Shown piece after piece: positions 11,251 to 40,842 of a stretch of DNA of 64,000 nucleotides. The stretch lies in NCBI GenBank assembly GCA_044892525.1, contig CM097885.1:222146001-222210000 (forward strand), in the 5' to 3' direction. The notes under the pieces are model-generated. The model did not search any database. It worked only from the letters and a program-made list of their open reading frames with translations, and had not been told where the DNA came from. The translations under genes were made by a program, and so were the position numbers. The stretch comes from Schmidtea polychroa. Taxonomy: Eukaryota. The stretch's first letter is position 1; the number at the start of each line of letters is the position of its first letter.

Positions 11251-11379
11251 TTAAAATATAACTCCCCGTATATCCATGGTGAATAACCAATATCAAATAA
11301 TAATGATATTAATAATAATTTGAGTGTAATGATAACAGTCCGATATTAACAACACTATTAATAATTATCTATTATTAGA

Positions 11380-11735
11380 TGCAGCATGGGCACCATTTAA
11401 ATTAAGGTTGCGAGCCGTACAAGGTACAAATATCGCCAAATTATTGATTTGAAAAATACGTGCTCTTACACCTTTGTATTTTCTAGACACATTAGCATCC
11501 TTGTAGTCTAGCATCATGAATATCTAATTTATCATTCTGCTAGTTTATTTAAAATTTCCGTAGCTAAACCTTCACCGGTCTTGTCTTGTGATTCAATAAA
11601 ATCAATGAAGCTCTCTTCAATCGTCACTTTAGAATTAACATTTCTTTGATGAATCAGGAGTGCAGTCGAATAAAATAGTGTATTATTTTGCTTTCTTAAT
11701 TCTTGATATAATTTGATTTCTAGTTTTATCACCAA
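11380..11735 (-). pseudogene. hAT (ZMYM1-like / DUF4371) transposase fragment
   Basis: IEESFIDFIESQDKTGEGLATEILNKL followed by ANVSRKYKGVRARIF...FVPCTARNLNL, a decayed CxxH motif. Confidence 0.75.
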
Positions 11736-12188
11736 TCAATTTTATTATTTCTTTTGGAATAGCTGGAGTCTTTTTGGTTTTTCAATACAATCTTTAAAAG
11801 CAGCGGGGTCGCTACCCCAATTGAAGTCGATAAAGTTTTTTATGGGGTCGCGAAAAATTCCCAGTTTAAAATAACTACGCTAAAATTTCTATCTATGACT
11901 TAAATTAAAATGTTTTCACTAGTCTTATTGTGACATTCCACAATCCACAAAATAATTTTGTAGTCAGATCGTTTTCTTTTATATTTATATACATTTTCGT
12001 GGTTTTTCATTTAACAATCTTGTGTCGATATACGTTTTCTAATGACATTTATTTTATTTATTGAATCCAAAATCAATCATTTTGACATTAATAGTTGTCA
12101 AAAATTTATTATAGATGTTTGCTATTTTTTATGTGCTGGTGATACGTTTGCTGGTAATCAAAAAAAAGAAATTCAATTAACTTATTAA

Positions 12189-14372
12189 CCTTCAAATGGT
12201 ATTCATTTGTACCAACACTAACCGCGTTTAGGACAAAAATGTCTACCATATATTTTTGTATCAAAATGTAACAAAAAAAATTTTTTTAAGTTCATTAGTT
12301 TTTTATTTACATTCAAATATATAAAACAAAAATAAAAATTCAAAAAATTATTCAAAATTTTAACCAAAATAATATAAAATGAACTTAACATAATAAAATT
12401 CTTTAATTTTTCAATTATTATGACAAGCAGGACAAATATATTTTACATCGTTTTTGCATACATAATTTTTACATTTATTACATTTTATTGTGGTTTTCCC
12501 CGTTCTGATAGGACAAGTAGAACACATGTCTCTTTTCGAAGCTGTAGGCTTCGAAGATCCGCCAGCATCATCTTGTTTGCTTTGAGCTTCCTGAATAATA
12601 TTTCTCGCGGCAAGTCCTCTAGGTAAATGTTGTCGGCTTAGCATTTGAGGTTTTATCAAACTATCACCTAATTTTTCCAAAAATAAACTTCTCTTACTCA
12701 AACTATTACAATTCCAAGATAAATCAACTTCCTTGTAAAGTACGAAAGCATTGTAAGCAGATATATCTAACATATTGCAAAAAACAACGAATGGCCATCT
12801 TCTAGATTTTCTTTTTGTAGAATAACAGGATACCATTTTATCTAAAGTATCCACTCCGCCTTTTGTGGCATTATAATATTTGATAATTTCAGGTTTACGT
12901 TGAGGTTCATTAGTTATAACTTCATCAGACAAATGTAGAGTACTTTGCATCACTACGCATCGATATTTTTTAGGTACATAAGATACTAGTGTTGTATCTT
13001 TTGTAAAAACAAATTTTGATGTATATTGTGGAAAAGATCTTGTATTCAAAATTTCTGGTGGGATTGTTAGTTTATTTTTTCTTAGTGTACCCACCATTGT
13101 TATAGATTTTTCCAGGAGTTTTTGGCCAAGCTGATATGATGTGAAAAAATTGTCGAGTGTTATGTTGTGACCTTTGAGACCCCTCACTAAATCTAGTACA
13201 ACTCTCATACCTTGATTTGTTTCGGGAGCAGCATCCGGTTGTTTTCCTAAATATGGCTGTATTTTCCAAGCGTAGTAAGACTTGCTGCAAGCTGCAATCC
13301 AAAATTTAATCCAATATTTCGCAGGTTTACTTTTCATATATTGGCGAAAAGGACATCGACCACGAAAACCAAGTAGTTGTTCGTCAACTGTCACATTCTC
13401 TGATGGATTATAAAACATGGGTAACTTTTCACTCCAAGCATCCCACAATTCTCGGATTGGTGTAAATTTGTCATTCATACGTCTTTCTGACCGGGTTTCT
13501 TTTTTATCAAATCTAAGAATTTTTGAAATCTTTTGAAATCTTTTCAATGGCATGGTTGCACGTAACAAAGGTCTACCCGTAGTTTCATGCCATAAGCTTT
13601 CAGTTGCTTCATTTTTTGACTTATAAACACCCGCTAAAATCAAGCATCCAAAATAGGAATAAAGTTCAGTTGCATCCAAATCCTTCCAACTATCTCCAAA
13701 AACGGTTTTTCCTTCACTGTTTGAGTTTTTCAAAATCATATTTTCAATAGCTTTCGGAAAAAAAATTTCATGAATGCACTGTTTATATCAGTGATTCGGC
13801 TAGCTGCATAACTAGTAATTCCCGGAGTCATATTCAATATATTTTCTGCTCGATTGCGACCCAAATTGGTGCTAACAGGTTTTTGATGCCACAATACTGT
13901 CTTATCTTTCGATAAAAAACTATTTGGCTCTACATCGCCTAAACTTTCCTGATCAGAACTCGAATACTCGCTATCAATAAAAACATGGTCATCATCAGAT
14001 GGATCAGCTTCGCTACCACTAAAAACTAAATCTTGAATTTCTTCATCGGTTAAATTTTGATCGGTCATAATTTTGAAAACCCACAAAATAATAATTTAGA
14101 ACAAATAACATATGTTTGTTGTAAACAGGTAAAAACAAATCATGTTTGAACAGGAATTTCATTATAGACATTTTTGTCCACATTACGGTCAACGTGCATT
14201 TTTTATACCTAGAAATCTGTATGACACCATAAAATAAATTAAGCGGCAAATTATTAATTTAAAAAAAAGGAGAATTTACATTGAAAAATTTTTCAAACTT
14301 AAGTTTGTATTCAGGCGTTATTTACAGTTAAAAAATAATTTTGACAAAAATGTCCACAATACCACATAAAGG
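12189..14372 (-). mobile_element. Full-length piggyBac transposon, 2184 bp
   Basis: TTAA TSD at 12185-12188 and 14373-14376; imperfect TIR CCTT(C/T)A(A/T)(A/G)TGGTATT; subterminal GACAAAAATGTC repeats near 12230, 14165 (inverted) and 14343. Confidence 0.92.
12411..14068 (-). CDS. piggyBac transposase (PGBD4-like), split by a one-base frameshift near 13760
   Basis: Acidic N-terminus MTDQNLTDEEIQDL (ORF 13736-14086) continues in ORF 12411-13739 with catalytic motifs TVDEQL, TLDNFFTS and GGVDTLD and a Cys-rich C-terminus. Confidence 0.85.
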
Positions 14373-14519
14373 TTAATAAGATGATAATTATTAAGATGAT
14401 AATTATAATTAAAGATGATAATTATAAAGTTTTAGAAATTACTTATTCAATCCAGAGACAGTAATAAGGAAACACAAGACAAAGGTTAAAACAAGGATGC
14501 TAAAAATAAAACAAAAGCA

Positions 14520-14690
14520 TCATCAATAACAAAAAAAGGAAAAACCTTTTTTAAATTTTGGATTTACTTTAAGCAATACCAATGGAGAAGAAAGACCACT
14601 GTGTTTGATTTGCAATGAAACTTTAGCAAGTGAGAGTTTTAAACGGACTAAATTAAAAAGGTATTTGGAAAAGATTCACCAAAACCTTTG
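14520..14690 (+). pseudogene. hAT (ZBED5/FAM200-like) transposase N-terminal fragment
   Basis: NGEERPLCLICNETLASESFKRTKLKRYLEKIH BED-like motif. Confidence 0.65.
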
Positions 14691-14719
14691 AAACAAATCG
14701 TCGGCTTTGAAATAAGATA

Positions 14720-15800
14720 GATGATAATGTCGATTAATTCTAAAAAGTTTCCTTTGTTTTCCGACTCCTCACTCTCATCGTGACCACGTAAAGCGATTTG
14801 TTGTTTAGCATAAAATAATATTACCTCTGCTAACGTTTTTAAGTAGTACCTGTTTTTCTCGCGCAGTGTAACGGCAGCCTTATCTTTTCCTTCTTTCTAG
14901 CGGATTTTAAATTGACCCCATTCCATCATGCATCGCAAATGTTCAGCAGATGAATTGTGAAGAGTTAATCCAAACTTTTGACCTGTTGCGCGCTGCCAGT
15001 CAGAAAATCCAGTAGGTTCGGCTCCAGTAAAGACAGCAAAAGCAATATGAAGCATCCTGCTTAACAGAATATTCCATACACGGAAATTCCGCAAAAAACA
15101 ACTTTGAAAACGATGTCTTACTGATTTGGTTATTCCAAAATATCTCCACGGGTATATAAGTGAGGTTGGTTGAACGGGACATGCTCTTTCCCTTTGGAAA
15201 TGTCCTCTGGAAATTTTTGATATCCTGCTGGTTAATATTATCAATTATTTTTTCTTTGGATATACGCACATCAAGTTCTTTTCACGTCTGAAAGTTGTCT
15301 AAATCGAAAGTATTCCTTTCATGTGAAGACAGAATTGCTCTAATATTTTTCAAGTCTTTTGATCCTGATTTTTCTAGGATTAACGAGCTGTTTTTGTTAA
15401 ATAACTTGCAGTAAAAACAAAAAACCGCATTTTTTATAGTTGAATATATCAACCATGAACAGTATACTTCTTCCTCATTGGCTAGTTTTCTCTTATAATG
15501 AATTGTAGAGAATCTTCTATTTTTCGAATCTTTGGGAAAATTATATGTAATAATTTGATGTAGTAGATTTTGTAATAAAATCTGACGAAAATTATCAATA
15601 CAATAGTCAAGTCAGTTTCGTAATTTCATGTGAGCATTCGCTTTGCATCATAATATCAGATTCTGAAACACCTCTTTTATTTTCTTCTTTTTTGAAATAT
15701 CTTTATCCGCGTGATCTGACATATACATCTGATTGTCCTACACATCTATCCAAGTCACTGCTGGCGGAAACATCAAGGCTTGATATGAAAAACTTTAATA
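14720..15800 (-). pseudogene. hAT (ZMYM1-like) transposase remnants with TTF-type zinc finger
   Basis: FPCMEYSVKQDASYCFCC, a second WLIYSTIKNAVFCFYCKLF segment and IALRGHDESEESENKGNFLELI. Confidence 0.75.
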
Positions 15801-15989
15801 GTCGACCACTTTTCCTTTCCTACCACTTTGTGACAAAGCTATTGTGACCGAAATGCGACGGTATATATAGCCTGATTTTATGGTGTGCGAGTATATGTGA
15901 ATGCAAGTAGCTAGTTAGGAGCGTACCGCAGCAACTTTTTATTACGCAATTGCTGCAACTCACATTTTTTTTGCTTTCAGGGATCTTTA

Positions 15990-16500
15990 GTACAAAAATT
16001 TTTTTATCAGACTATAGTGAGGGGGTCTCCATGGTTCTGGGATTTTCAATACCAAAAAAATTTTTTCAATACAAATTTGAATTACCACTAAAAAAAGCAT
16101 GGATTATTCAGACTATAGTGAGGGGTCTCGATGGTCCTGGGATTTTCAATACAAAATCCGACTCACTAAAAAAAGCATGATAAATTAAGGTCTTAGGATA
16201 TTTTTCAATACAAAAAGACAGTCTTCAATAAAAAAAGCGTGGTAATTTAAGGTCTTACGATATTTTCAATACAAAAAAGGTGGTCTACATTAAAAAGCAT
16301 GGTAATTTAAGGTCTCAGGATATTTTCAATACAAATATCTGTCTTCAATAAAAAAGCTTGGTAATTTAAGGTCTCAGGATATTTTCAATACAAAAAGCCG
16401 AGGATAAGTCAGTATTATTTGGGTGGGTCTCCATGGTCCTGGAATTTTCATTACAGAAAGGTAGTTTTCAATAGAAAAAGGTGGTCTACACTAAAAAAGC
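15990..16500. repeat. ~60 bp degenerate tandem repeat (AAAAAAGCATGGTAATTTAAGGTCTCAGGATATTTTCAATAC), module C
   Basis: Several adjacent copies; reverse-complement relatives at ~17460-17760 and direct relatives at ~38760-39050. Confidence 0.8.
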
Positions 16501-17110
16501 GTGGTAAATTAAGGATAAATACGTAATTGTCCGAATTTTTGAATTACAGTAAATTATGGGCTCAATTTTTTGAATTACATTAAATAATGGGTCTAAAAAT
16601 TGAATTACAGTAAATTAAGGTCCAAATTTTTGAACTACAGCAAATTATGGGTCCAATAATTGAATTAAAGTAATCAATGGATTCAAATAAATTAATTATG
16701 GTCCAAATTTTAAAATTACAGTAAATTATGGTCTAAATAAGTAAATTAAGGTTCAAATTTTGAATTAAAGATAATTAAGGTCTAAATATTTAATTTAAAG
16801 TAATCAATGGGCTCAATTAAGTAAATTATGATCTAAAATTTTAAATTAAAGTAAAATATGGTCCAAATTTTAAAATTAAGTAATCAATGGTCAAAAACTT
16901 TAAATTAAAGTTAAATAAGTAAATTAAAGTAATAATTTTTAAATTTATTAACAAAAAGTTGGAATAATAGTAGGTGTTTGAGAATTGAAATTTTTTAATA
17001 AAAAGTTTTATGAAATAATTTTTTAAGTAATTTTTAATAGAAATTTTAATAAAATATTTTTCAATGGTAATTTTATATGGAAATTTTTATGGAATAATTT
17101 TAAATAAAAA
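16500..17110. repeat. ~30 bp degenerate tandem repeat, module B in reverse orientation
   Basis: AAATTATGGGTCCAAATTTTGAATTACAG-like units running into the gap. Confidence 0.7.
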
Positions 17111-17255
17111 NNNNNNNNNNNNNNNNNNNNNNNNNNNNNNNNNNNNNNNNNNNNNNNNNNNNNNNNNNNNNNNNNNNNNNNNNNNNNNNNNNNNNNNNNN
17201 NNNNNNNNNNNNNNNNNNNNNNNNNNNNNNNNNNNNNNNNNNNNNNNNNNNNNNN
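17111..17255. other. Assembly gap (N run)
   Basis: 145 N; further gaps at 18962-19114 and 39257-39393. Confidence 1.
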
Positions 17256-18570
17256 ATTTGTCTCTGAAAATTATTTCATAAAAATTTCAATCTAAAACTT
17301 TCATTTCTCAAAAATCGACTATTATTCAAACTTTTGATAATAAATTTAAAATTCTTACTTTAATTTACTTATTTAAAATTTTTACTTTCATCAAAAATAT
17401 TACTTATTTAAAATCTTAATTTTAAAATTTAGCCTTATTTTACTAAATTTAACTATCGGATTTCGTATTGAAAATATCCTGAGACCTTAAATTACCACGT
17501 CTTTTTATTGATGACCCCATTTTTGCATTTAAAATATCCTGAAATTATCAATTATTATGTCTTTTTAACGAGGATTAGATTTTGTATAGAAATTCTCAGG
17601 TTCAAGGAGACCTCCTCACTGTAGTCAGAAAAATCCATGCTTTTCATCGAGAATTGAAAATTGTATTGAAAATCCGAGGATCAATCGAGGCCCCTCACTA
17701 TAATTAGAAAAAAATGGCTTTTTTTTGTATAGCCGGATTTTGTATTGAAAATTCCAGAAAAAATAAGCATAGCACTCTGCAGGAATTACGTAACCATTGA
17801 GCAAATAAAAACTACTTCAGAAAAAAAAATTTTCTAGGGGTACCCCCACCGGATAGTCGTGCTACAATTAGCTACTAACTATCTACTGTAATATGCAAAT
17901 AAAGTGTAACTAGTGTCCACATTGCTTTAACGGTTTTAGATATAAGAAAGCATTTGACCAAGATGTTGATTTTTGTTAAAAATCAGATTGGTACTACGCT
18001 TTATACATTACTGAAAAATAAAAACTTAAAATTCATCAACTTTTCCAAAACATTTAATACACCGTTTGAGAGAACTGGGCCACTAACTACCTAATGAATT
18101 AAAATACATATTAAACCAAAATAAAAAGTTAAAAATTTATCCTATCTGCATATTTTTTGCTGAGCATTTGAAAATATTCTATAAGATATAGACTTATTTC
18201 TAATTGTTTCCGCTTGGGAACGCTGGTTATAACTTGGTCAACCCGAACAATCTACTGGCTAATAAATATGAATTTTCTGTATTTTAAAACATTCAAAAAA
18301 TATTATGCATAATATTATTGTTGGAGCTTTAAATTTGAAATTAAAATAAATATTTTAAAATAAAGTTGAAATCAAATGAAATCAAATGAAATCAAATAGA
18401 AATGTGAAAATTTGAAGGAGAAATTTAATTTTTAAATCTTTAACTTTTCTACAATTTCAAAAGTTTATCTGTATTATTAGATAATAATAAATATTTATTA
18501 AGAATAATTAAATTAATATTTATTAACAATTAGTACGTTAAATATTAAAAATATTAATTCATATGAAAAT

Positions 18571-21500
18571 AGTAGTATGTAGTAAGGACTCCAGCGCACT
18601 TTCAAGGTCATGGAATATCAAGATCAAATATAGACCAATCGAATCATTTACTTTTTAAATTAACATTTTATAAAATTACTTCTTTTTAATTTTTTTTTTA
18701 ATTTTTTCATTTTAATTTTATTAATTACGTTTAAAAATTACGTTAACCGCGCGAAAAATACAAATTTATCGTAAAAACATGTGTGTATTACACACAAAGC
18801 GACAAACTAAAATTGTAATTGAGTCATTTTGTAGAGAAATAAATACTGCCTATACATGGTTACACTTAAATCCCAATCGGACAAAGAGAAAAGAGACAAA
18901 TGGGTGAAAAAGAGAGAGAAAAAACAGTAGAGTAGGGAACAAAGACATATGACGTCATCGANNNNNNNNNNNNNNNNNNNNNNNNNNNNNNNNNNNNNNN
19001 NNNNNNNNNNNNNNNNNNNNNNNNNNNNNNNNNNNNNNNNNNNNNNNNNNNNNNNNNNNNNNNNNNNNNNNNNNNNNNNNNNNNNNNNNNNNNNNNNNNN
19101 NNNNNNNNNNNNNNAAACTATGAAAATGTTAAAAATAATCATGAAATTGAGGCAAAAATTATAAAAATGTTCCTGAAATTATTATGAAAATGTTAAATAA
19201 ATAAACTTTAGCGTCAAAATGTGTTTTAAAATATATTGAAGTTTTAAAATACTGCAACGTAATGCATTTATTTTTCCTAGCCCTTCCTTGATTTTGATTG
19301 GTCAGAATTTAATCATGTGTAATATACAAGCAGTAACTTTTCAAATGTTTGTCATTTAAACTTTTAATTTAACTTATATAAGTGAATAATTTTTTATTCT
19401 CTATCTAATATTAATGATTATTTTCTTTTAGTGAACGGATGCAGTTTATATAAATTTTGTATTGCCGAAAGTCATGAAGATGTGGAGAACTGTAAATCAG
19501 TTACATCATCATATTTCAAGATAAATAACTCTACCTTATCGGGTTACATATGTCCGGAATGTCTCATTATATCACCAGGTAGGTGGTTAATGTTTGTACG
19601 ACAGCACGGACACCATCTTAGAAGATTCGAAGAAACGAAGAGCAGGATGATCACTAAAAGTAATACTCTTTCTACTATTAACAATTATTAATTTTTTATA
19701 GTACAATCGAAAATGAATACATCATACGATCCTAAGCCGATTAAAGAATATGTTACAAGTTATGTTATTTAAGTTGTTTAATATTAATTATAAATATAGT
19801 TAGACAAAACTCTGGCACCACAAAACGAAAGTCAATATTTTACGGAAATGGAGACTCTAAAATACAATTGTGTCCACGTCGGGAGTCTGACTTAAATGGT
19901 TCTCGTGTTGAATTGACAAGCGATGTATCTGCAATTAATTCTCCTGACATTGTTGTTCCAGATTGTCTCATCAAAGAAATAGAAGATCATATTCAACGAA
20001 TGGGGACAGTAAAAATCCAATTTGGACTTTGTGCAGAGTTTATCAAAGAGGATGGTGAAATTAAAAAATGGTGTTTGTCGAATAAAGCAATTACAATGTC
20101 ATCTTCATTTATTAATGATGGAATTGAAAAATTGAAAGAAAAGTCGGAGAACTACACTCAACAAAGTAGTGGGTGGAGAATTCATAAAATATTAGAAGTA
20201 ACTATGATTTTAACTAAATTATCAGGCATAATACATGTATCTGGTAAGTTTATTTACATTATTATATATATAAATCAAGATATTTACTTAGGTTCAAGTT
20301 ACATTAAAACGCGAAATTACCTGAAAAACTGTCAGGCTTTAGTTAATGTTCAAAACAATGATCAATTCTGTTTTTTATATAGCATACTAGCCGTGTTACG
20401 TTATGATGATATACGTCGGGATAGAGAAAGAACAACAAAATATAACTTAAGTGGTAATATATATATATATATATATTTATGAATGTCATAAATCATTGAA
20501 TTTTGTTTTTAAGACTTAAAATGGAAATTTGAATGGTTTCCGATGAAGTTGGTTAACATTTGCCAATTTGAAGCAATGAATCCAAATCTAGCGATCAATG
20601 TTCTCAAATATAATAAGGATCCAATTAAACAAAAAACTAATGATATTTTCAAGAATCCGTTCGTTGACTTGGTATATAGAAGTACTTTGACGGGATCTCA
20701 GATATATCTCCAATTGATTGAAGAAGGTAATATTTCTTTTAATCATTAAAAATATTAACTAAATTTTAGAATTAAATTATCATTTTTTGGCTGTAACTAA
20801 TTTCGATCGACTGCTGAATTAAAGAGATAGAGTAGAAGGAGTCAGAATCCAATCACAATGGTGTCATACATGTCTTCATGGATTTCAAAAAGGTCCTGCT
20901 TTTGAAAGACATATAGGTCTTTGTAGGAAGAATGTGGAGCGGACGACTCTATACTCAATGCCAGAGAATAAATATATCGAATTTAAAGACTGGAGTAAAA
21001 CTATAAAACAGCAGTTTGTTGTCTACGCGGACTTTGAATCAATATTACCTCTAGATGACAAGCACTTCCAAAAACATGAGCCGATTGCATCTGAATTTGT
21101 GCTTCTTCATCAAGGTTGTCCGATTCGAAATGAAACATTTGTTGGGAAAAACTGTATCATTCAGTTTATACAAGCATTGGATGATATAGCTACAGACATA
21201 GTTTATCCGTGGTATTAAATTAATGGATCGAAGGAAATGATGGAACTCACTTGGGAACAGCAGGAAGAATTTACGAATCAAACTCATTGCTACCTTTGTA
21301 AAAAGATTATCAATATACCTGTTCGGGATCACGATCATTTTACCGGTCAATATCTCGGAGCAGCGTGTCAAGATTGTAATTTGGGTAGAAGAATCAATCC
21401 GTCTTTACCCGTTGTATTTCACAATCTTCGTGGATATGACATTCATCATATATTAAAATATGCAATTCGAAAATTCCCAGATTGGAATTTAAATGTTATT

Positions 21501-23695
21501 CCACAATCAACAGAAAAGTTTCTCACACTTACAGCGACATCGAAAGGCAGAAGAATTAGATTCATTGATTCTTTACAATTTTTAAATAGCAGCTTGGCAA
21601 ATTTATCAAAATATTTACCATGTCTTCCACTGACCTCAGATGTTTTTGAATCACAGATGATGACTTGTAAAACCATTTTTCCTTATGATATGGCTACATC
21701 AATGGATGTTTTACAGTCAATAACAGAATTACCACTGATTTGGGAGGGAGTTAGTGAAGAAGATTATATACATGCAAATCGAATCTGGCAACAATACAAC
21801 TGTGAGACACTGCTAGATTACATGCTAGTATATCTCAAGCTGGATGTTTTTCTGTTGGCCGATGTTTTTGAAGCTTTCAGAGAAAAAACATTTGACGAAG
21901 ATGGACTTGAGGCTCTATCGTTTGTTTCCATACCCGGATTAAGTTGGGCATCAGCTATTAAACAGTTACCTGAACCGGTAGAACTTATTCAAGATCCAGA
22001 GCTTTACCGTTTATTTGAAGCTGGTATTCGTGGTGGAATGACATTTATCAACAAACATCATGTTGAAGCTGATGAATCAACACAAATGTCATACCTAGAT
22101 GTTAATAATTTATATGGATGGGCGCTGTCGCAAAAACTTCCTGTTGGTGAATTTAGATGGATAAATGATCAGACTGAAATGAATGGTATTCTTGAAAGAT
22201 GTACAAATGGGGATGAGTTTGATGGAGATCGTGGATATGTTCTAGAGGTTGACATCGTCATTCCTTATAGTATACAAGATAAGCTAGTTGATTTACCTAT
22301 AGCTCCTGAGCTTTGTTATCCACCTGGTAGTAAAGTTGAAAAGCTGTTGTTAACTCATGAGCCTAAGAAAAACTATGTAGTTAATGGTAGAGTTTTGACA
22401 GAGTGGTTGAGTTACGGCGCAAAAGTCACAAAAGTTAATCGTGCTGTAGAATTCAAGCAATTAGCTATTTTCAAAGGCTATATTGATTACAATACTCAAA
22501 TGAGAGCGGCTAGTACAGATTCATTTCAGCGAGATTATTATAAGTTAAAGAACAATAGTTTATACGGTAAAACCGTGGAAAACCTTAAGAAACGTATAAA
22601 TTTGAGATTATGCAGCAAAAGCAAAAGATTGATAACTTATTGTAGTAATCCTATGTTTCGTCGTAGCATCAAGATTGCGGATGATCTCATTGCTGTTATA
22701 CTTGATAAGGAAATGGTGTGTTTAGATAGACCAATGTATATTGGACAAACCGTACTTGATTTATCTAAACTTCGCATGTACCAGTTTCAATATAAAGAAC
22801 TACAGAGTTATAGAGAAGAATTCAATTGTAAAATTAATATCGTAGCCGGTGACACAGATTCCTTCTTTTTAGAGTGTAAAAATGTTGATTTACGCTTACA
22901 ACTGTATCCAAAAATGATTGCCGATGGGCTCCTAGATACTTCAAATTATCCAGTGACTGATCCATTGTTCTCAGATAAAATTTGTTCGGTAATCGGGAAA
23001 TTCAAGGATGAGAATAAAGGAAATCAATATAAAGAATGGGTGTTTCTTCGACCCAAGTGCTACTCACTCCAAGGGGATAAAAACACTCTAAATGCCAAAG
23101 GAATAAGTCTTACAAATTCTAATATCACCCATGAAGCCTATAAAAAAGTGTATACTGATGGTGGAACAGTGAGCATCCAACAAAAGAGAATAGGAAGTGT
23201 TAATCATCAGTTGTATACTTTCATTACAGAAAAACGAGCTCTCCAATGTTTGGATGATAAAAGGTATTGGTTAAATTCTAATGAAAGCTATGCCTACGGT
23301 CACAATAAGATTCGTCAAATGCATATTGCAACTGCTATGTCTAGAAATGAATGCAAATCGAAACAAGCACTTTAACAATTAAATTTATGTGAATAATAAA
23401 ATATATATTGTGAATTATTTGACTTAGTTAATTAAAATGTGTTTTATCATTTAATTATTCATTTGTCCAATTAATTTAGATAATTAGTTTCAAGTAAGAA
23501 ATATTATTTTCGTGTTTATGTTATTTATTTTTTTTTATTTTTTCCGAAATATTAATATGCAGTTTATCTAAAATTAAATCATCGTTTTATTTTATAAATT
23601 AAATAATTTCTAATTAAAATTTTATTCAAATTGAAATATTATTGTTATAATTTACCTCTTGTTAGAATATAATGTAAATGTAAAATTAAAAAAAA

Positions 23696-23728
<33 letters not shown>

Positions 23729-24113
23729 AAATAATACTAAAATAAATACATAATAAAATAATTAATTAAGAAAATTAAAAAGAAAAAAAAATAAATAGAA
23801 GTAATTAAATAAAATTTAAATTAAAAAATAAATAAATTAATTAAAAAATAATAATAATAATAATAATTAAATAGCGTAAGTAATTAAAATAAAATATTAA
23901 TAAACTAATAAATTGATTAAATGTAATAAATTAAAATAAAACATAATAAAATAATTAATTAATAAAATTAAAATGAAAAAATAAAAAAAAAAAATTAAAA
24001 AGAAGTAATTTTATAAAATGTTAATTTAAAAAATAAATGATTCGATTGGTCTATATTTGATCTTGATATTCCATGACCTTGAAAGTGCGCTGGAGTCCTT
24101 ACTACATACTACT
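18571..24113 (+). mobile_element. Polinton/Maverick-like element, ~5.5 kb, pPolB the only visible gene
   Basis: Termini AGTAGTATGTAGTAAGGACTCC...GGAGTCCTTACTACATACTACT; TIR ~155 bp; 6 bp TSD GAAAAT at 18565-18570 and 24114-24119; empty site with a single GAAAAT in the partner arm near 37945. Confidence 0.92.
19381..23375 (+). pseudogene. Protein-primed family B DNA polymerase (pPolB), intron-containing, two in-frame TAA stops
   Basis: Exo I VYADFES, Exo II FHNLRGYD, Exo III YLKLDV, pol motifs YLDVNNLYG, KLKNNSLYGK, AGDTDS and RPKCY. Inserted endonuclease VII-like CYLC...DHDHFTG...CQDCN. Introns 19660-19701, 19759-19799, 20244-20291, 20454-20513, 20727-20769 (possibly 19382-19431). Stops at 20820-20822 and 21216-21218. 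Confidence 0.88.
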
Positions 24114-24776
24114 GAAAATATTATTCAGTAATATTTATATTAAATACATAAATGGAAATATAAATAATATTATTAATTAATAAATAAAATAACTTAATTA
24201 ATTAAATTTATTAAATCATAATAAAATAGTTAATTAATAAAATAGAATAAAATAAAGTAAGTAATAAAATTAAAAATAATAAAAAATTAAGTAAAATAAA
24301 ATAATATTTTCAAATTAAATAAATTAAAAATTAATAATAATAATAAAATTTATAATAGATTATTTAAAAAAATAAATAATAAAAGTAATAAATAATTAAT
24401 TTTAATAAAATTTAAAATAGTGTTTAAAAAGTAAATAAAATAAAATTTATAAATCAAATAAATTAGATTATTTAAAAATGTAAATCTTTAATTTTTCTAT
24501 AATTTTAAAAGTTTATCTGCATTATAAGATAATAATAAATATTTATTAAAAATAATAAAATTAATATTTATTAAAAATTATTAATGTTACAAGTTTAAAA
24601 TAGTTTCCATGTGAAAAGATTATTCAGTTATATTTTCTATTATTTCCTTATTTTATATTTATATTCTCTTCTGTTAATTGCAATTTCAAATATCTTTAAA
24701 ATATTTAAATTTCCGTAATAAAAATATTTTTAAATTGTTTGAATTATCATATTAATGTATTATATTTATTAACTAA

Positions 24777-27268
24777 ATGAATTCAAACAAACGATTAATG
24801 AACTCTGAAATTTCTGAAGCTTTCAAAAGAAATTTGAAATACGATCTAGTAAAAGATCATTCAACAGCAACTTCAAGGCATCATTATAACGCCCTCGCTC
24901 AAACGGTTTGGGAACAAATTTGTAGTCGGTGGATCAAAACTGAGGAACTTTATAACAAAAACGATCCAAAAGTAAATTCAATTTTCATTAAAATATAAAA
25001 TTAATATTATTATTTTAGCGAGTTTATTATTTATCTCTGGAATTTTACATGGGCAGAACATTGAGTAACACAATGATGAATATTGATTTACTTGAAGAAG
25101 TTAAACAAAATCTTTATGAAATGGGTCTCGAAATCGAAGAATTAGAAGAGATTGAAGATGATGCTGGACTTGGAAATGGAGGTCTTGGACGTCTAGCAGC
25201 ATGCTTTCTAGATTCCATGGCGACTTTAGGAATTGCTGCTTGCGGATATGGAATCCGTTATGACTATGGAATATTTCAACAGGTTTTCCATGATGGATGG
25301 CAAATTGAAAAGCCTGATGATTGGTTGAAGCATGGTAATGTTTGGGAAAAAATCCGATCCCAATATAGTCACGAAATCAAATTTTATGGACACTGCCAAA
25401 ATACCGAAGATGGAAATAATCGTTGGGTTGACACAGAATCTGTACTGGCAATGCCATATGATACACCGATACCTGGATATAAAAATGACATCTGTAATAC
25501 TTTACGCTTGTGGTCAAGCAAACCAGTTAATAATTTCGATTTTCAATCATTTAATTCTGGACATTACTTAAATGCAGTCCATGAAAGAAATAACGCAGAA
25601 AACATTTCACGTGTTTTGTATCCAAATGATAACTGTGAAGGTGGAAAAATACTGAGATTGAAACAAGAATATTTTGTTGTCGCAGCAAGTTTGCAAGACA
25701 TTATTCGACAATATAGAGAATCAGGACCTCGTTCAGGTTTTGATGAATTTCCTAATAAAGTTGCAATACAACTCAATGATACTCATCCTAGTATTGCTAT
25801 TCCCGAATTGATGCGTATACTAGTTGATTTGGAAGGTTTGGATTGGGATAAAGCCTGGGATATTTGTACTCGAACATTTGCCTATACAAATCACACAATT
25901 TTACCAGAAGCTCTTGAAAGATGGTCAGTTTCATTACTAGAGTTTCTTTTACCTAGACATTTACAAATTATCTATCTCATCAACCATTTCTTTATGTTAT
26001 CGGTTAAAGAAAGATATCCCCATGATAATGACCGCTTACGACGAATGTCAATAATTGAAGAGGGAGATGAAAAGAAAGTGAATATGGCCCATCTCTGTAT
26101 TGTTGGATCACACGCAGTCAATGGCGTTGCTGCGATACATTCCAAGATTATTAAAGACGATACATTCAGAGACTTTTCTGATTTTTGGCCTGAGCGGTTC
26201 CAAAACAAAACTAATGGAATAACTCCACGTCGGTGGTTATTGTTATGCAATCCAGATCTTTCCAATTACATCAGTCAGAATATTGGAAGATCATGGATAA
26301 ACAACTTGAATGATTTGTCAGATTTGAAACGGTTCTGCGATGATGCAAATGTGCTTGAGTCAATCATGCAAATCAAATATGAAAACAAAGTAAAATTTGC
26401 AAATTACATTGAGAAAAACATGAACATCAAAATTAATCCCAATACAATGTTCGACTTTCAAGTGAAACGGATCCATGAATATAAACGTCAATTGTTAAAT
26501 TGTTTATATGTGATTGTGCTATACAACCGATTGAAAAAGAATCCTCATTTGGAAATCACTCCAAGAACTGTCATGTTTGGAGGAAAAGCTGCTCCTGGGT
26601 ATCACATGGCCAAATTGATAATCAAACTTATCAATCAAGTCGCATCTACCATTAATCAAGATCCAATCATCAGTGAAAAGCTAAAACTTGTATTTCTTGA
26701 AAACTATCGAGTATCAATGGCAGAGAAGATCTTTCCTGCTGCAGATCTTAGTCAACAAATATCCACAGCAGGTACGGAGGCATCTGGAACTGGGAACATG
26801 AAATTTATGTTAAATGGAGCTTTGACAATTGGTACAATGGATGGAGCTAATGTCGAAATGTGTGAAGAGATGGGTAAAGAAAATATGTTTATATTTGGAA
26901 TGTTAGTAGACGAAGTCAACTCACTCAAACCAAGATATAATTCCATGGAATTTATTGGGAGAAACGAAGAACTCAATTTATGTTTAAACCAAATTCGTGA
27001 TGGCCATTTTTCACCTAATCAACCACATTTATTTCACGATATCTACAATTCTTTAGTTTACCATGATAGATTTATGTTGTGCGCTGACTTTGAAGATTAT
27101 GTCAAAGTACAGGATGAAGTTGGAAAGATGTATCAAAATAAAAGACAATGGGCTAAAATGGCTTTATTAAACATTGCATCCAGTGGAAAGTTTTCATCTG
27201 ATAGAACAATTTCTGAATATGCACGAGACATTTGGAATAGTAAACAGAACTCGCATGAAAGTTTATAG
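24777..27268 (+). CDS. PYG: Glycogen phosphorylase, copy 1 (two exons, intron 24972-25018, ~814 aa)
   Basis: Splicing joins DPK|[15 protein letters not shown]; [41 protein letters not shown] and the PLP-lysine motif [10 protein letters not shown] are all present. Confidence 0.97.
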
Positions 27269-28524
27269 TAAAATCAATTTATCTGCTTTATGTTAATTAA
27301 ATATATTTATTATTATTATTAATTTTATTGTTTCTTCAATTTTTATTTGTTTTAATAAACATTTTTATTTTAAACAATTTATAAATATTCGTGATTTTCA
27401 ATTGCTAATTATAGATTTGTTTAATTTTATAAGTAAATAATAATTTGGCTACTAACTAACTACCTATCTGATAAACTAAGTAAAATATCAATGAATAAAA
27501 TATTGATGCAATATTGATGAGATACTTATATAAAAATCTCAAAAAAAAACTAAAATAAGTTTTCCTCCAACTTATTGACATGGCGACATTGATATTTCAT
27601 ATATAGGTAGAGTAGGCAACATATAGCTCTGCCTAGGGCCGCCAAATGACTGGAACTATCATTCAACGTATTAATAAATATTCATAATAAATATTTTAAT
27701 ATATCAACTTTATTGATTATTTTGTCAATAAATTTTAAAATGAAGTGTAATATAAAAATAGTTTTGAAGTTTCTAAAATTGATAAATTCTGTGTTAACAG
27801 AGAAGAATATTTTTATATATTTTAATATTTAATTTTATATACAATTTTTAAAGTTTTAATTTTTCAAAATGTTTTTTATTTAAAATGAATTTTATAATTT
27901 TGTCTTTCAATATTATATAATTATCAGTCTTCTTTATTTACCCTAACCTTAATTTTTTTCATATTTTACTTTTCGAGTTACTTTGCCCGTGTTCTTTTTT
28001 ATATATTATATGATTAAATAAATTTCAAATATTTTTAGATATATTAGTAATAAAAGTTTATAAATTTTAAATACACCAAAAGAAATTAGTTTAGAATAAA
28101 GTGAATTTCCAACTTTAACTCTTCTATGAAAACCAGTGGGAATTTATTCGTTGATTTTTGATATAATTACATTAAAGTCATCTTTCATTTCAAAAATTAA
28201 ATTATTTTATCCAAATATAAATAAAATTAATAGTTTAAGAAATATTTTAAACCATGAAATTTTCCATTTGAATAATAATAATCATTGATAATAAATATTT
28301 AAAAATATTTTATTTAATTAATTTGAAATGATGAATTTTACTTAAATATTGTAAATTAGTAATTTTTAAAGGTTAATATTCAATTTTTTAATATATACTT
28401 ATAATAATGACAATTAAATTTCTTAGGCATATTGATAACAGAGTGGTAATATGATGTATACTGCTAATATTAACATTTATGATAATAATATTAATAATAA
28501 AGATGATAATAACTTGATATTAAT

Positions 28525-28579
<55 letters not shown>

Positions 28580-28727
28580 TTGATGACAATGATAATAACA
28601 ATAATTGCATATCAATAATTGTAATGTGCTAATATTTTAGAAATAATAATAATAATCATAAGGCAGACGGGTGCCCAATAATAGAGAATCAATATTAGAT
28701 TTGATCGTGATAATGTTATTTAAAATA

Positions 28728-29003
28728 TTTATTTCACAATTAAACTCTGTCATATATTTTTTCAATTCATGATATTGTAGCTGGTATATCCGCAGTTTAG
28801 ACAGATCTAGCACAGACCAATATAGCTAGGCCTGTCTAAATATATCGAATTCTTATTTGGATGAGCAGCAATCATATCATCATCAATTCTGATGGATTTT
28901 CTGAAAATGAGTTCTGAGGCATATACAATAATCTTTTCAGCTGAATTGCACAGCCTCAAATTCAACCGTTTTTTCAGATTCTCTACGGATTTATCATATA
29001 GGC
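28728..29003 (-). pseudogene. Inverted copy of a pPolB fragment (left half of the central hairpin)
   Basis: Reverse complement of ~29890-30168 with a few mismatches. Confidence 0.88.
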
Positions 29004-29788
29004 CAAAGGTGGGGAATCTGCTGCCTTTTGGCTATTCTAGTGCGGCCTTTTGAGTAATACCGATTTTTTTATTTTTTGGTAATTTTTTACGTGGTTTCAC
29101 TTTACGCGATCGAGAAAAAATGTTTATGATGCATATGCCGCTTCACGTGCTTTTTATTTATTCGTAGTTACACTCCTCAGTTTTCAGCAAAATTACGAAA
29201 TTTTATGATTTTAAGAAAAATTGAGCCATTTTTTGATATTTAAAGAAAATTATGCTATTTCTTTGTTTTTAAGAAAAGCTGAGCTATTTTTTTTAAATAT
29301 AATAAAATCCGTTCTATTTTCTTTATTATTTCAAAATCTGTGCTATTTTCTTTATTATTTCAAAATCTGTGCTGTTTTCTTTCTCATTTCAAAAACGTGT
29401 TATTTCTTTATTATTTCAAAAAACGTGTTATTGTTTTTATTATTTCGAAGAACGTGCTATTTCAAAATTTGTGCTATTTTTTTTATTTTCCATTTATATA
29501 ATTCTGTTTGTGTTACAACCCATCATGTCAAAGAAGATCAAGAGATCGCTAAAGGACGAAAACAGATTATTTAACAAGGACTGGGAATTGGAATATTATG
29601 TTGTTTCTGTTAAAAATAAAATGGTTTGTTTACTTTGTGATACTACTATATCAACATTGAAAAAATTCAATGCTCATCAGCATTATAGTACTCATAAGGA
29701 CCACAAGTTTTTCAAATTAGAAGGAGAGCCGCGAAAAGCTATTTTAATGAAATTAAAACACCAAAAATGAAAAGGTTCCCCAGCCCTG
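29004..29788 (+). mobile_element. Internally deleted hAT element (SPIN/GTF2IRD2-like), 785 bp
   Basis: TIRs CAAAGGTGGGGAATC / GGTTCCCCAGCCCTG; perfect 8 bp TSD ATATAGGC; truncated transposase N-terminus KRSLKDENRLFNKDWELEYYV...VCLLC...HYSTH. Confidence 0.9.
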
Positions 29789-29848
29789 ATATAGGCTGTT
29801 ATTAAATAATTTATATAAACCTCTGTACAACTCACATTTAATTTCTAC

Positions 29849-30420
29849 ATGTGAGCTGTACAGAGGTTTGTATAAATTATTTAATAACAACCTATATGAT
29901 AAATCCGTAGAGAATCTGAAAAAACGGTTGAATTTGAGGCTGTGCAATTCAGCTGTAAAGATGATTGTATATGCCTCAGAACTCATTTTCAGAAAATCCA
30001 TCAGAATTGATGATGATATGATTGCTGCTCATCCAAATAAGAATTTGATATGTTTAGACAGGCCTAGCTATATTGGTCTGTGCTAGATCTGTCTAAACTG
30101 TGGATATATCAGGTACAATATCATGAATTGATGAAATATATGACAGAGTTTAATTGTGAAATAAATATTGTTGCCGGCAACACTGATTCATTTTTTCTTG
30201 AGATTAGGCACTGTAAGCTTGATACTTTTTTGTCTGCAATGATTAGAGACAGCCTTCTATATATCCATTGTACTCGAGAAACCTTGACTTTGTGATAGGA
30301 AAATTTAAGGACGAGAGTTAAGGTCTCGGATACACTGAATGAGTTTTCTTAAGACCCAAGTTTTATAGTTTAATGGGTACTAAGGACACAATGAGAACCA
30401 AGGGTGTTAAATTAGTGGAA
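29849..30420 (+). pseudogene. pPolB C-terminal fragment from a related, diverged Polinton
   Basis: YKLFNNNLYDKSVENLKKRLNLRLC, LDRPSYIG, LDLSKL and INIVAGNTDSFFLE align with the 21237-23375 ORF. Confidence 0.85.
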
Positions 30421-31169
30421 CAGAAATTCCTCACCAGTCATATTTCTACTGTTATAATAACAATAACATATTTTCAGTACCACAGACTAGGATAGTTCAG
30501 ATTAAAAATTATTTTAATTCAAGTCAAAAATTATTTTAGTTCAGATCAATAATTATTTAAGTGCTAGATGACTTTTAAAGTAAATTTTTGAATAAAAAGT
30601 TTTGATTTGAATTATTTTAGTAAAAAAGAGAATAATATAGTGCTCATTAAATAATAAAGTAATGCTTGGAAATGATATAGTGCAGTTTGCTATTAAAAAT
30701 AGTGACACTTGTGATCATTTTCTAGTGCAACATTAAATACATTCCCCTCTTTATTTGTCAGTTTTACTTGCTTTTATTCAAGTAAAATGTATCTCAAAAA
30801 TCATCGTTAAGGTTTTAATTAATATTTACAAACTACCGCGCCAGCACCTTCGGGCAGTTGCGGATGCTGGGCGTGCTGATGATTTTAATCTTTATATTTT
30901 AAAAAAAGGTATATTTACATGTTTTATGGTGAAATGTTGATTTAAAAAATTTTGTAATAAAGCTGAGAAATTTAGTTTAGACTTTAAAATTTTGAAAAAA
31001 TTTGAGTTGACAAATATGTTTTTGAGACTTTTAGAATTTTGGGAATTTTATGATTTGGCAAGATTTTTCTTGTAAATATATTGTACATTTCTTATACTGT
31101 TGATTTCTATTACTAAAATTATATTTAAAAAAAATCTTCCCTTTACGAATCAACAGATATATTAAACAG

Positions 31170-33306: not shown

Positions 33307-33455
33307 TTATTTTAAATAACATTATCACGATCAAATTTAATATTGATTCTCTATTATTGGGCACCCGCCTGCCTTATGATTATTATTATTATTTCTAAAA
33401 TATTAGCACATTACAATTATTGATATGCAATTATTGTTATTATCATTGTCATCAA

Positions 33456-33537
<82 letters not shown>

Positions 33538-36500: not shown

Positions 36501-39256
36501 TCCAGAATTAAATGATTGAAAATCGAAATTATTAACTGGTTTGCTTGACCACAAGCGTAAAGTATTACAGATGTCATTTTTATATCCAGGTATCGGTGTA
36601 TCATATGGCATTGCCAGTACAGATTCTGTGTCAACCCAACGATTATTTCCATCTTCGGTATTTTGGCAGTGTCCATAAAATTTGATTTCGTGACTATATT
36701 GGGATCGGATTTTTTCCCAAACATTACCATGCTTCAACCAATCATCAGGCTTTTCAATTTGCCATCCATCATGGAAAACCTGTTGAAATATTCCATAGTC
36801 ATAACGGATTCCATATCCGCAAGCAGCAATTCCTAAAGTCGCCATGGAATCTAGAAAGCATGCTGCTAGACGTCCAAGACCTCCATTTCCAAGTCCAGCA
36901 TCATCTTCAATCTCTTCTAATTCTTCGATTTCGAGACCCATTTCATAAAGATTTTGTTTAACTTCTTCAAGTAAATCAATATTCATCATTGTGTTACTCA
37001 ATGTTCTGCCCATGTAAAATTCCAGAGATAAATAATAAACTCGCTAAAATAATAATATTAATTTTATATTTTAATGAAAATTGAATTTACTTTTGGATCG
37101 TTTTTGTTATAAAGTTCCTCAGTTTTGATCCACCGACTACAAATTTGTTCCCAAACCGTTTGAGCGAGGGCGTTATAATGATGTCTTGAAGTTTCTGTTG
37201 AATGATCTTTTACTAGATCGTATTTCAAATTTCTTTTGAAAGCTTCGGAAATTTCAGAGTTCATTAATCGTTTGTTTGAATTCATTTAGTTAATAAATAT
37301 AATACATTAATATGATAATTCAAACAATTTAAAAATATTTTTATTACGGAAATTTAAATATTTTAAAGATATTTGAAATTGCAATTAACAGAAGAGAATA
37401 TAAATATAAAATAAGGAAATAATAGAAAATATAACTGAATAATCTTTTCACATGGAAACTATTTTAAACTTGTAACATTAATAATTTTTAATAAATATTA
37501 ATTTTATTATTTTTAATAAATATTTATTATTATCTTATAATGCAGATAAACTTTTAAAATTGTAGAAAAATTAAAGATTTACATTTTTAAATAATCTAAT
37601 TTATTTGATTTATAAATTTTATTTTATTTACTTTTTAAACACTATTTTAAATTTTATTAAAATTAATTATTTATTACTTTTATTATTTATTTTTTTAAAT
37701 AATCTATTATAAATTTTATTATTATTATTAATTTTTAATTTATTTAATTTGAAAATTTTATTTTATTTTACTTAATTTTTTATTATTTTTAATTTTATTA
37801 CTTACTTTATTTTATTCTATTTTATTAATTAACTATTTTATTATGATTTGATAAATTTAATTAATTAAGTTATTTTATTTATTAATTAATAATATTATTT
37901 ATATTTCCATTTATGTATTTAATATAAATATTACTGAATAATATTTTCATATGAATTAATATTTTTAATATTTAACGTACTAATTGTTAATAAATATTAA
38001 TTTAATTATTCTTAATAAATATTTATTATTATCTAATAATACAGATAAACTTTTGAAATTGTAGAAAAGTTAAAGATTTAAAAATTAAATTTCTCCTTCA
38101 AATTTTCACATTTCTATTTGATTTCATTTGATTTCATTTGATTTCAACTTTATTTTAAAATATTTATTTTAATTTCAAATTTAAAGCTCCAACAATAATA
38201 TTATGCATAATATTTTTTGAATGTTTTAAAATACAGAAAATTCATATTTATTAGCCAGTAGATTGTTCGGGTTGACCAAGTTATAACCAGCGTTCCCAAG
38301 CGGAAACAATTAGAAATAAGTCTATATCTTATAGAATATTTTCAAATGCTCGGCAAAAAATATGCAGATAGGATAAATTTTTAACTTTTTATTTTGGTTT
38401 AATATGTATTTTAATTCATTAGGTAGTTAGTGGCCCAGTTCTCTCAAACGGTGTATTAAATGTTTTGGAAAAGTTGATGAATTTTAAGTTTTTATTTTTC
38501 AGTAATGTATAAAGCGTAGTACCAATCTGATTTTTAACAAAAATCAACATCTTGGTCAAATGCTTTCTTATATCTAAAACCGTTAAAGCAATGTGGACAC
38601 TAGTTACACTTTATTTGCATATTACAGTAGATAGTTAGTAGCTAATTGTAGCACGACTATCCGGTGGGGGTACCCCTAGAAAATTTTTTTTTCTGAAGTA
38701 GTTTTTATTTGCTCAATGGTTACGTAATTGCTGCAGAGTGCTATGCTTATTTTTTCTGGAATTTTCAATACAAAATCCGGCTATACAAAAAAAAGCCATT
38801 TTTTTCTAATTATAGTGAGGGCCTCGATCGATCCTCGGATTTTCAATACAATTTTCAATTCTCGATAAAAAGCATGGATTTTTCTGACTACAGTGAGGAG
38901 GTCTCCTTGAACCTGAGAATTTCTATACAAAATCTAATCCTCGTTAAAAAGACATAATAATTGATAATTTCAGGATATTTTAAATGCAAAAATGGGGTCA
39001 TCAATAAAAAGACGTGGTAATTTAAGGTCTCAGGATATTTTCAATACGAAATCCGATAGTTAAATTTAGTAAAATAAGGCTAAATTTTAAAATTAAGATT
39101 TTAAATAAGTAATATTTTTGATGAAAGTAAAAATTTTAAATAAGTAAATTAAAGTAAGAATTTTAAATTTATTATCAAAAGTTTGAATAATAGTCGATTT
39201 TTGAGAAATGAAAGTTTTAGATTGAAATTTTTATGAAATAATTTTCAGAGACAAAT
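33307..39256 (-). repeat. Right arm of large inverted duplication
   Basis: Reverse complement of 17256-18570 plus 24114-28728, with scattered substitutions and a longer (AAT)n tract. Confidence 0.92.
34794..37285 (-). CDS. PYG: Glycogen phosphorylase, copy 2 (two exons)
   Basis: The 739 aa ORF has the same translation as copy 1; exon 1 differs at one residue (HSTATS versus HSTETS). Confidence 0.97.
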
Positions 39257-39564
39257 NNNNNNNNNNNNNNNNNNNNNNNNNNNNNNNNNNNNNNNNNNNN
39301 NNNNNNNNNNNNNNNNNNNNNNNNNNNNNNNNNNNNNNNNNNNNNNNNNNNNNNNNNNNNNNNNNNNNNNNNNNNNNNNNNNNNNNNNNNNNNCAACAAC
39401 AACCAAGTACTTACAACTAGATACCCACAACCAGGTACCAAGTACTAACCACTAATAACAACCAAATACTTAGCACTATCAATCAAGTACCCAACTACCA
39501 GCAACTAAGTATTTTTAACTAGCTACGAACAAATAAGCATCAAATACTTACAACTAAGTATTTA

Positions 39565-40455: not shown

Positions 40456-40842
40456 TACAACCAACAAACAACTAGCTAGTAACAGATTAGTACCAACAAC
40501 TAGATCCCAACAACAATCAACCAACTAGGTACTACCTACCAAGTACTAACTACCTCTTAAACAACTAGATACTTACAACTAGTGCATGTCGGGATTTGGC
40601 CATTTTCTCTATACCTGTATTTCTGTATTGAAAATTTAAAACCGGGATACCGGTATTAATACCGAAATAATACCGAAATATTTATAAATAAAAAAATCAA
40701 ATTAGTCCCATTTAAAAATTAAATTTTATGAAGTTTATAAAAATTTATTAACTGGTTTTGTTATAAATATTTATTCATCATGTGTCTACTATGAATAGAC
40801 TTTAATATAAGAAATTAAATCAATTAACGATTTTCTCATTAA

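Follow-up and report, generated by a model that had tools for sequence, protein, structure and literature searches.

At 18571–24113 of the 64,000-nucleotide stretch of Schmidtea polychroa DNA analysed here (contig CM097885.1, positions 222,146,001 to 222,210,000; henceforth the window, to which all coordinates refer), an insertion was found that has the ends of a Polinton (Maverick) and carries a gene for a family B DNA polymerase of the protein-primed kind (pPolB). It measures 5543 bases as assembled, so that the 5.5 kb stated in the initial annotation is correct for the assembled sequence, with the qualification that this figure counts an assembly gap entered as 153 N (18962–19114). Its terminal inverted repeats (TIRs), 157–158 bp long, begin with AGTAGT at 18571 and finish with ACTACT at 24113; over 158 alignment columns they are 98.1% identical and differ by one substitution (position 81) and two changes in or beside a T run. 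A 30-base terminal sequence (≤7 mismatches) was found in the window only at the two ends of the element. Both flanks carry GAAAAT, a hexamer with a chance of ~0.0009 at a given site, and the other arm of a large inverted duplication fuses both insertion flanks over one GAAAAT. The segment 18571–24113 is a genuine insertion with an empty site, and the termini, the TIRs (put at ~155 bp), the exact 6 bp target-site duplication (TSD) and the preserved empty site that had been noted earlier were all recovered. Maverick TIRs end in (AGT)2/(ACT)2 or (AG)3/(CT)3 and are flanked by a 6 bp TSD (PMC8097293), and the first of these types of end and the 6 bp TSD are both present here. An AT-rich repeat of ~138 bp (85%) at 18433–18569 and 24481–24617 flanks the insertion site, and the empty arm has the pair too.

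The pPolB gene (19432–23375) was recognised by a Pfam match to PF03175 (E 1.6e-30), accompanied by a weak endonuclease VII match (E 3e-4), and its exonuclease and polymerase motifs were located. It is not one open reading frame (ORF): the region carries five or six predicted introns, which the initial annotation had not recognised, and two internal stops. When homologs of 1100–1250 residues with 50–63% identity were aligned over 19434–23320, AT-rich insertions and shifts of frame became apparent in the window, and these were resolved into five GT-AG introns and a less certain sixth (Table 1). Excising introns 3–5 gave an almost gap-free alignment to intronless homologs, and the conceptually spliced protein of 1235 residues matched P0008 with 57% identity over 1121 columns, 11 of them gap columns. 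The introns are 41–60 nt long with a GC content of 0.12–0.17, compared to 0.30–0.37 in the exons. Four host introns in neighbouring genes are 47, 41, 85 and 47 nt long with a GC content of 0.09–0.21 and similar donors, so that, as judged from their sequences, the pPolB introns resemble host introns in size, GC and donors. All five are in phase 1 (chance of a common phase ~0.026 at typical phase frequencies), and the internal exons are therefore multiples of three. Intron 1 falls in a variable linker and its placement is looser. Intron 0 is the weakest of the six, with another possible donor at 19333 and homolog N-termini that align from 19434; the first coding exon (19432–19659) aligns with the N-termini of P0006, P0016, P0021, P0169 and P0170. 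Self-splicing group I or II introns were ruled out by the lengths of only 41–60 nt and by the lack of any Rfam match across 18400–24300. A search for an introner origin yielded only short AT-rich matches (≤11 nt) among the six introns, with which an old introner origin would still be compatible.

Table 1. Features of the insertion, its predicted gene parts and the empty site
Feature	Position	Strand	Basis
Left TSD, GAAAAT	18565..18570	+	sequence comparison
Left TIR, starting (AGT)2	18571..18727	+	98.1% to right TIR
Left subterminal sequence, unique within window, no gene	18728..18961	.	
Assembly gap, entered as 153 N	18962..19114	.	
AT-rich presumed promoter and 5' untranslated region (UTR), TATA-like at 19160 and 19375 (inferred)	19115..19381	+	
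Possible intron 0, 50 nt, GT-AG, would split start codon	19382..19431	+	
pPolB exon, N-terminal Cys/His-rich domain (putative zinc-finger-like)	19432..19659	+	
Intron 1, 42 nt, phase 1, in-frame stop inside	19660..19701	+	
pPolB linker exon, 57 nt	19702..19758	+	
Intron 2, 41 nt, phase 1, explains frame change	19759..19799	+	
pPolB exon, terminal-protein (little-finger-like) domain	19800..20243	+	fold of relative P0169
Intron 3, 48 nt, phase 1, at terminal protein/vOTU junction	20244..20291	+	
pPolB exon, vOTU first part including catalytic Cys position	20292..20453	+	
Intron 4, 60 nt, phase 1, TA run	20454..20513	+	
pPolB exon, vOTU middle part	20514..20726	+	
Intron 5, 43 nt, phase 1, explains frame change, four codons ahead of catalytic His position	20727..20769	+	
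Final pPolB exon, covering vOTU His, exonuclease (which has an endonuclease-VII-like insert) and polymerase	20770..23375	+	
3' UTR (AATAAA at 23395) followed by low-complexity AT-rich sequence, without a gene	23376..23955	+	
Right TIR, finishing (ACT)2	23956..24113	-	alignment to left TIR
Right TSD, GAAAAT	24114..24119	+	sequence comparison
Empty site, single GAAAAT, other arm of inverted duplication	37943..37948	-	

To place the introns relative to domains, the predicted fold of the intronless relative P0169 was used, which is 41% identical to the window gene over the N-terminal part and was modelled with a predicted local distance difference test score (pLDDT) of 87. Residues 94–213 matched the little-finger domain of Y-family polymerases (4IR1; Z 8.1, root-mean-square deviation (rmsd) 2.4, 91 aligned) and residues 228–355 matched OTU proteases (Z 6.8, rmsd 3.8, 100 aligned). 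These Z values are moderate, though many members of the matched families rank on top. The same two folds have been assigned to the terminal protein (TP) and vOTU domains of Polinton pPolBs, with a likely polyprotein cleavage placed between them (10.1101/2024.03.18.585575). The presence of TP and vOTU domains on the pPolB N-terminus, a mark of Polintons, is thus predicted from the P0169 model, and the catalytic Cys and His positions of the vOTU are retained in the window gene when mapped via P0169. The best viral fold match was a protein of Drosophila-associated adintovirus 2 (E 1.5e-17). Intron 3 maps to P0169 residue 220, in the stretch that separates the TP domain from the vOTU domain; introns 1 and 2 fall in a linker modelled with low confidence, and introns 4 and 5 in the vOTU domain.

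Ten records on contigs of 0.9–2.2 kb, compared as proteins, are 93–98% identical to the window gene (P0001, P0002, P0168, P0290, P0173, P0291–P0293, P0255 and P0294). These sisters show that the family is multi-copy. One of them, P0290, reads through intron 3 into intron 4 and leaves intron 4 in another frame and at another size, which is compatible with a length-variable intron. Six sister records begin at one codon, 20787, just 3' of intron 5, as would fit a reading frame that is closed upstream.

The sisters also revealed that the polymerase of the window copy is broken. In-frame stops occur at 20820–20822 and 21216–21218, and the sister records are open at both positions (6/6 at 20820 and 4/4 at 21216), which rules out an alternative genetic code as the explanation. 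Relative to all covering sisters, 19 of 707 codons differ; 2 of these are the stops, 11 are derived in the window copy, 3 are derived in sisters and 3 are unpolarised. The proposal that the element keeps its own replication enzyme consequently fails for this copy, given the two stops and further damage absent from the sisters. The introns, on the other hand, are a property of the lineage and not damage in the window copy.

The insertion appears to be recent, as judged from the inverted duplication, one arm of which contains the element (17256–28727 versus 33308–39256). The segment 17256–18574 matches 39256–37939 at 99.5%, and 24113–28727 matches 37949–33308 at 99.1%. Divergence amounts to 4 substitutions and 1 indel per 1315 bases on the left and to 12 substitutions per ~4460 bases on the right, counted up to a microsatellite; beside the insertion, the arms show 0 differences in 18162–18570 and 2 in 24114–24400. 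For a copy that was still intact at the time of the arm split, this divergence predicts 2.2–2.7 changes in the 707 codons. The excess of coding damage over this clock implies that the copy was defective already at insertion or that the arms were homogenised afterwards, and the TIR differences cannot settle which. The duplication as a whole (17256–39256) contains two near-identical glycogen phosphorylase genes (25019–27268 and 34794–37043) plus a first exon, and stops at gaps, at the same base in both arms; it may be a true palindrome or two alleles. At the edge of its spacer, an inverted repeat of pPolB relic sequence (28724–29002 / 29891–30169, 97%) encloses a Spin-doc zinc-finger ORF (29306–29770) and is a possible fold-back scar.

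The remainder of the element was then compared to 145 ORFs from 26 related loci, a query set that included four rve integrases, A32 ATPases, an adenain and a double-jelly-roll (DJR) protein. No match was obtained inside the assembled element outside pPolB. Outside pPolB-matching stretches, this search gave two matches in the window, at 1060–1314 and 62539–63168, both beyond the element. Stop-free stretches in the non-pPolB parts do not exceed 60, 49 and 38 codons, so that the assembled element, which matched none of the integrase, packaging ATPase (A32), protease (adenain) or major capsid (DJR) queries, also has no coding room for them. For a minor capsid protein, no query was identified among the 145 ORFs, and there is no coding room for this gene anyway. 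The pPolB gene itself found no match in phage and plasmid collections. That pPolB is the sole visible gene therefore stands for the assembled sequence; whether the element is minimal depends on the estimate of the gap. In loci L009 and L010, pPolB is at one end and other Polinton genes are located 5' of it, which is where the gap lies here. Gap sizes in the window are 153, 145 and 137 N, and from this unevenness alone we consider it probable that the gap is truly small.

A search with the TP exon (19800–20243) returned 56 matches and indicated that the intron 3 site is not confined to the sisters. In nine relatives (P0298, P0299, P0301, P0302, P0307, P0309, P0310, P0313 and P0322), which are 31–62% identical over the aligned part, homology is lost directly after the glycine codon split by intron 3 and the protein ends 1–25 residues on. 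The tails past this codon have at least five residues in 7/9; the other two could be contig ends. For P0305, the corresponding break is at the site of intron 4. Of 39 independent proteins that end within 200 residues around the TP/vOTU junction, nine do so at the single, pre-chosen intron 3 site (P ~4e-13 with a uniform model); the test in its most conservative form (7-residue window, 31 proteins, 60 residues) gave P 0.007, or 0.06 if the site is regarded as not pre-chosen. The sisters P0168 and P0290, the cluster mates P0347, P0348 and P0350, and P0172 were excluded from the count. P0340 was labelled in the tree yet dropped from the count, since its neighbours have a normal next residue there.

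The introns of these relatives are deduced from protein read-through and not from their DNA, and 80 of the 336 compared proteins pass all three sites unbroken, which argues against a universal intron. Some of the unbroken readers are on contigs of 15–27 kb; those on contigs of ~4 kb might be transcripts. On the tree of the TP domain, the 12 labelled intron rows required 8 changes versus a shuffled mean of 11.1 (2/500 as low), a result that the pair of window copy and sister inflates. The intron-bearing relatives were clustered and not monophyletic, so that a single clade was not supported; such a distribution fits one gain followed by losses, or repeated gains. P0298 and P0007, each on a contig of 13,555 bp, would be the two halves of a gene split at the intron 3 site. 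The N-termini of P0171, P0304, P0303, P0310, P0300 and P0295 open with hydrophobic stretches; these resemble read-through of a phase-1 splice acceptor 5' of the TP domain, a hint that a site like that of intron 2 exists in further relatives.

In the polymerase tree, a quick tree with no bootstrap, two sisters and the window copy form a group (100%) that lies within a clade of ENA and JGI proteins. Outside this clade are the pPolBs of the fetched loci, several of which have integrase, ATPase, protease or capsid neighbours. These 26 loci came from a scan of genome contigs and show 26–46% identity in the best segment; a lone pPolB enclosed by terminal repeats was seen in none of them, and none falls in the clade of the element. 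Most of them look like misbinned eukaryotic or viral contigs, such as L006, a Polinton-type locus binned in a bacterial metagenome-assembled genome, which at 10766–19754 contains a tandem duplication of a block made up of the pPolB 3' part, an integrase and three further ORFs. Within the clade, 12 of the 15 members listed of the related P0013 cluster are on contigs of 10.8–16.3 kb, which suggests that it includes full-size elements.

With Polintons, Mavericks and adintoviruses (class Polintoviricetes), the element has in common the (AGT)2...(ACT)2 ends, TIRs, 6 bp TSD and a pPolB with TP and vOTU, and the PF03175-type polymerase with OTU agrees with the wording for the 'Alpha' class (PMC8502044). 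It would differ in length if the gap is small (5.5 kb as assembled, gap included, compared to 15–25 kb), and it differs in the lack of integrase, ATPase, protease and capsid genes from the assembled part, and in the 5–6 introns of its pPolB, as intact vertebrate Mavericks have intronless ORFs (PMC8097293). Partial or helper-dependent Polintons likewise have lost core genes, kept their TIRs and presumably move in trans. Examples are the ten C. elegans loci with pPolB beside a TIR and no integrase (10.1101/2024.01.15.575659), insect polintons that stayed mobile without polB (10.1101/2025.02.07.637071), Ca_PLV1, an integrated Polinton-like virus (PLV) lacking an integrase (PMC11296320), and capsid-less Polintons (PMC4028283). 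Here, by comparison, pPolB alone remains, both TIRs are in place together with the TSD and an empty site, and our model predicts splicing of the gene. In the literature outside Repbase, supplements, the founding papers of 2006–2007 and most subscription papers, no report was found of an element that has pPolB as its one gene along with two TIRs and a TSD, nor of a spliceosomal intron conserved in a Polinton pPolB.

Introns are otherwise known from cryptophyte PLVs, which carry group I introns (PMC12220804), and from dinoflagellate maverick-polinton-like elements, which carry introners (PMC11957031). The latter share with the present case spliceosomal introns within integrated Polinton-like elements; those introns, however, are repeated intron-generating transposons, whereas here one position recurs across divergent relatives of 40–62% identity. 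Adenoviruses have related pPolB, TP and vOTU folds, but a separate TP gene and an inactive vOTU, compared to a fused TP and retained Cys and His positions here. The adenovirus TP and polymerase are made from spliced mRNAs. Transpovirons and linear plasmids are, like the element, linear and free of capsid genes, with TIRs and a replicase that derives from pPolB; the element differs from them in having no helicase fusion and no DDE gene, in keeping the exonuclease motifs, and in nuclear integration with a TSD. A superfamily 1 helicase-palm fusion of the transpoviron or Tlr1 kind, which replaces the exonuclease, was excluded by end-to-end alignment with ordinary pPolBs and the lack of any helicase match.

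Several other sequences of the window are related to mobile elements. Decayed pPolB relics of other lineages lie at 17872–18067 and 38446–38641, 28733–29001, 29826–30500 and 49066–50400, the last of which is uninterrupted at the sites of introns 4 and 5. A decayed relic at 62539–63168 (+) matches, with 34% identity (E 6e-29), an ORF of 419 residues in the Polinton-type locus L009, which we take, from its size and neighbours, to be a major capsid gene; nothing in support of this label was obtained from Pfam, PHROGs, PDB sequences or a single-sequence fold of the homolog (pLDDT 31). With this label, the relic suggests that Polintons encoding a capsid were once present in the host. A piggyBac-type transposase with a long open frame is present at 12411–14095 (-) (PF13843, E 4e-74), and an integrase-like fragment at 1060–1506, beside a dispersed repeat (1521–2422 / 39563–40457, 92%), is probably the relic of a long terminal repeat retrotransposon. 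A Cys/His-rich ORF of 277 residues at 43205–44038 (+) had no Pfam match. As regards the host, a G-protein-coupled receptor indicated an animal and nothing narrower, and a phosphorylase query was uninformative.

The explanation that we favour, with about as much doubt as confidence, is that the element is non-autonomous and derives by internal deletion from a Polinton lineage whose gene for the protein-primed polymerase is spliced. A complete relative would supply terminal protein and polymerase, the linear DNA would be copied from the TIRs, and the rve integrase of the complete relative would insert the element through a 6 bp staggered cut. As no integrase was found in the assembled sequence and the insertion has a 6 bp TSD, the integrase presumably acted in trans, and with a broken polymerase, helper enzymes probably served both replication and integration. 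The window copy was probably defective already when landing. Members that are functional would have their 5' introns excised by the host spliceosome, and a single polyprotein would result, in the order Cys/His domain, TP, vOTU, exonuclease and polymerase. The helper-driven integration proposed in the initial annotation is thereby retained as a likely inference for the sequence that is assembled.

A number of observations weigh against this explanation. The gap sits 5' of pPolB, where deleted or hidden genes would be expected, and could be either the deletion junction or the place of hidden genes. No second 5.5 kb copy was seen within the window, and no match to the TIRs, which a helper would share, was found in the 26 fetched loci. 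Those pPolBs for which integrase or ATPase neighbours were confirmed have no more than 28–38% identity and are outside the clade of the element, so that its link to full-size Polintons is indirect, its closest relatives being proteins without visible context. The three TIR differences slightly exceed the prediction of the arm clock (P 0.01–0.016), or agree with it when the count is restricted to the substitution away from the T run (P 0.35–0.41), and the clock is invalid if gene conversion homogenised the arms. Splicing, too, is deduced from sequence and not from transcripts.

The gap is central to the alternative that the element is a full-size Polinton with its other genes hidden in, or collapsed at, 18962–19114. 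The left end of the element is on a separate contig of 1.7 kb between two gaps, and both the gene order of L009 and L010 and the element-sized contigs of the P0013 cluster fit this view. The gap sizes of 137, 145 and 153 N, in turn, are uneven in the manner of read-pair estimates, and read-pair links would require both sides of the gap to be near each other in some copy; we regard hidden genes as unlikely. An equally doubtful alternative is a one-off event, in which a complete Polinton inserted, lost its interior and decayed in place, with arms that look young through conversion or as head-to-head alleles. The coding damage and the 3/158 TIR differences are compatible with one older age, several decayed pPolB relics are present within the window, and degradation affects 96% of the Maverick loci of vertebrates (PMC8097293); against this, the flanks hardly differ between the arms and the interior of the element is without a remnant of any other gene.

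The model originally put forward, a stable satellite family of ~5.5 kb with a working pPolB under selection that borrows only integrase and capsid, is no more probable than these two. It could draw on the sisters being open at both stop positions, on several relatives located on contigs of 4–7 kb, and on the proposal of mobile replication modules that may move independently (10.64898/2026.10.13.758929), though the pPolBs there were consistently paired with DDE integrases. However, the window copy is broken, 5 of the 10 sister records finish in out-of-frame tails and many are thus damaged or misassembled, short contigs may be fragments or transcripts, and no copy of equal size was seen in the window. 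Size coincidences among the 4–7 kb relatives were considered as a sign of other mini-elements and rejected as uninformative. A satellite with its own working enzyme is false for the window copy and, as an unproven idea, may apply to the family. Least probable by far is that the AT-rich segments are decay insertions rather than introns, or that a host-captured polymerase gene is flanked by repeats through chance. The intron calls do come from sequence, introns 0–2 are in poorly conserved regions and 80 proteins pass all three conserved sites; yet every segment is GT-AG, frame-restoring and host-intron-like, two introns are common to a sister and one site to nine divergent relatives. The TIRs, TSD and empty site in turn indicate a mobile insertion and not a captured gene.

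Of the two novelties, a minimal satellite and a spliced pPolB in which the intron at a domain boundary recurs, the second has the better support. A more far-reaching claim can be formulated, which we hold to be improbable in its entirety. According to this, an undescribed Polinton clade would have an old spliceosomal intron exactly between TP and vOTU, at the predicted cut; retention of the intron would end translation and free the TP, so that splicing would offer a way to separate TP from polymerase as adenoviruses do, and the phase-1 exons would permit in-frame skipping of domains. The clade would also yield pPolB-only mini-elements that spread as helper-dependent satellites.

Should the gap conceal the rest of the element, the intron result alone would survive. 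As it stands, the pair of filled and empty sites suggests that insertion is possible without an integrase gene and with a dead polymerase, which would narrow the needs in cis to the ends. Polinton genes are usually handled as intronless and annotated by ORF finders, and if splicing in the 5' third of pPolB is true clade-wide, elements would be scored as fragmented or dead and their terminal-protein part overlooked. The intron between TP and vOTU bears on how each new strand gets its terminal protein, and on the possible origin of the TP gene that adenoviruses keep separate.

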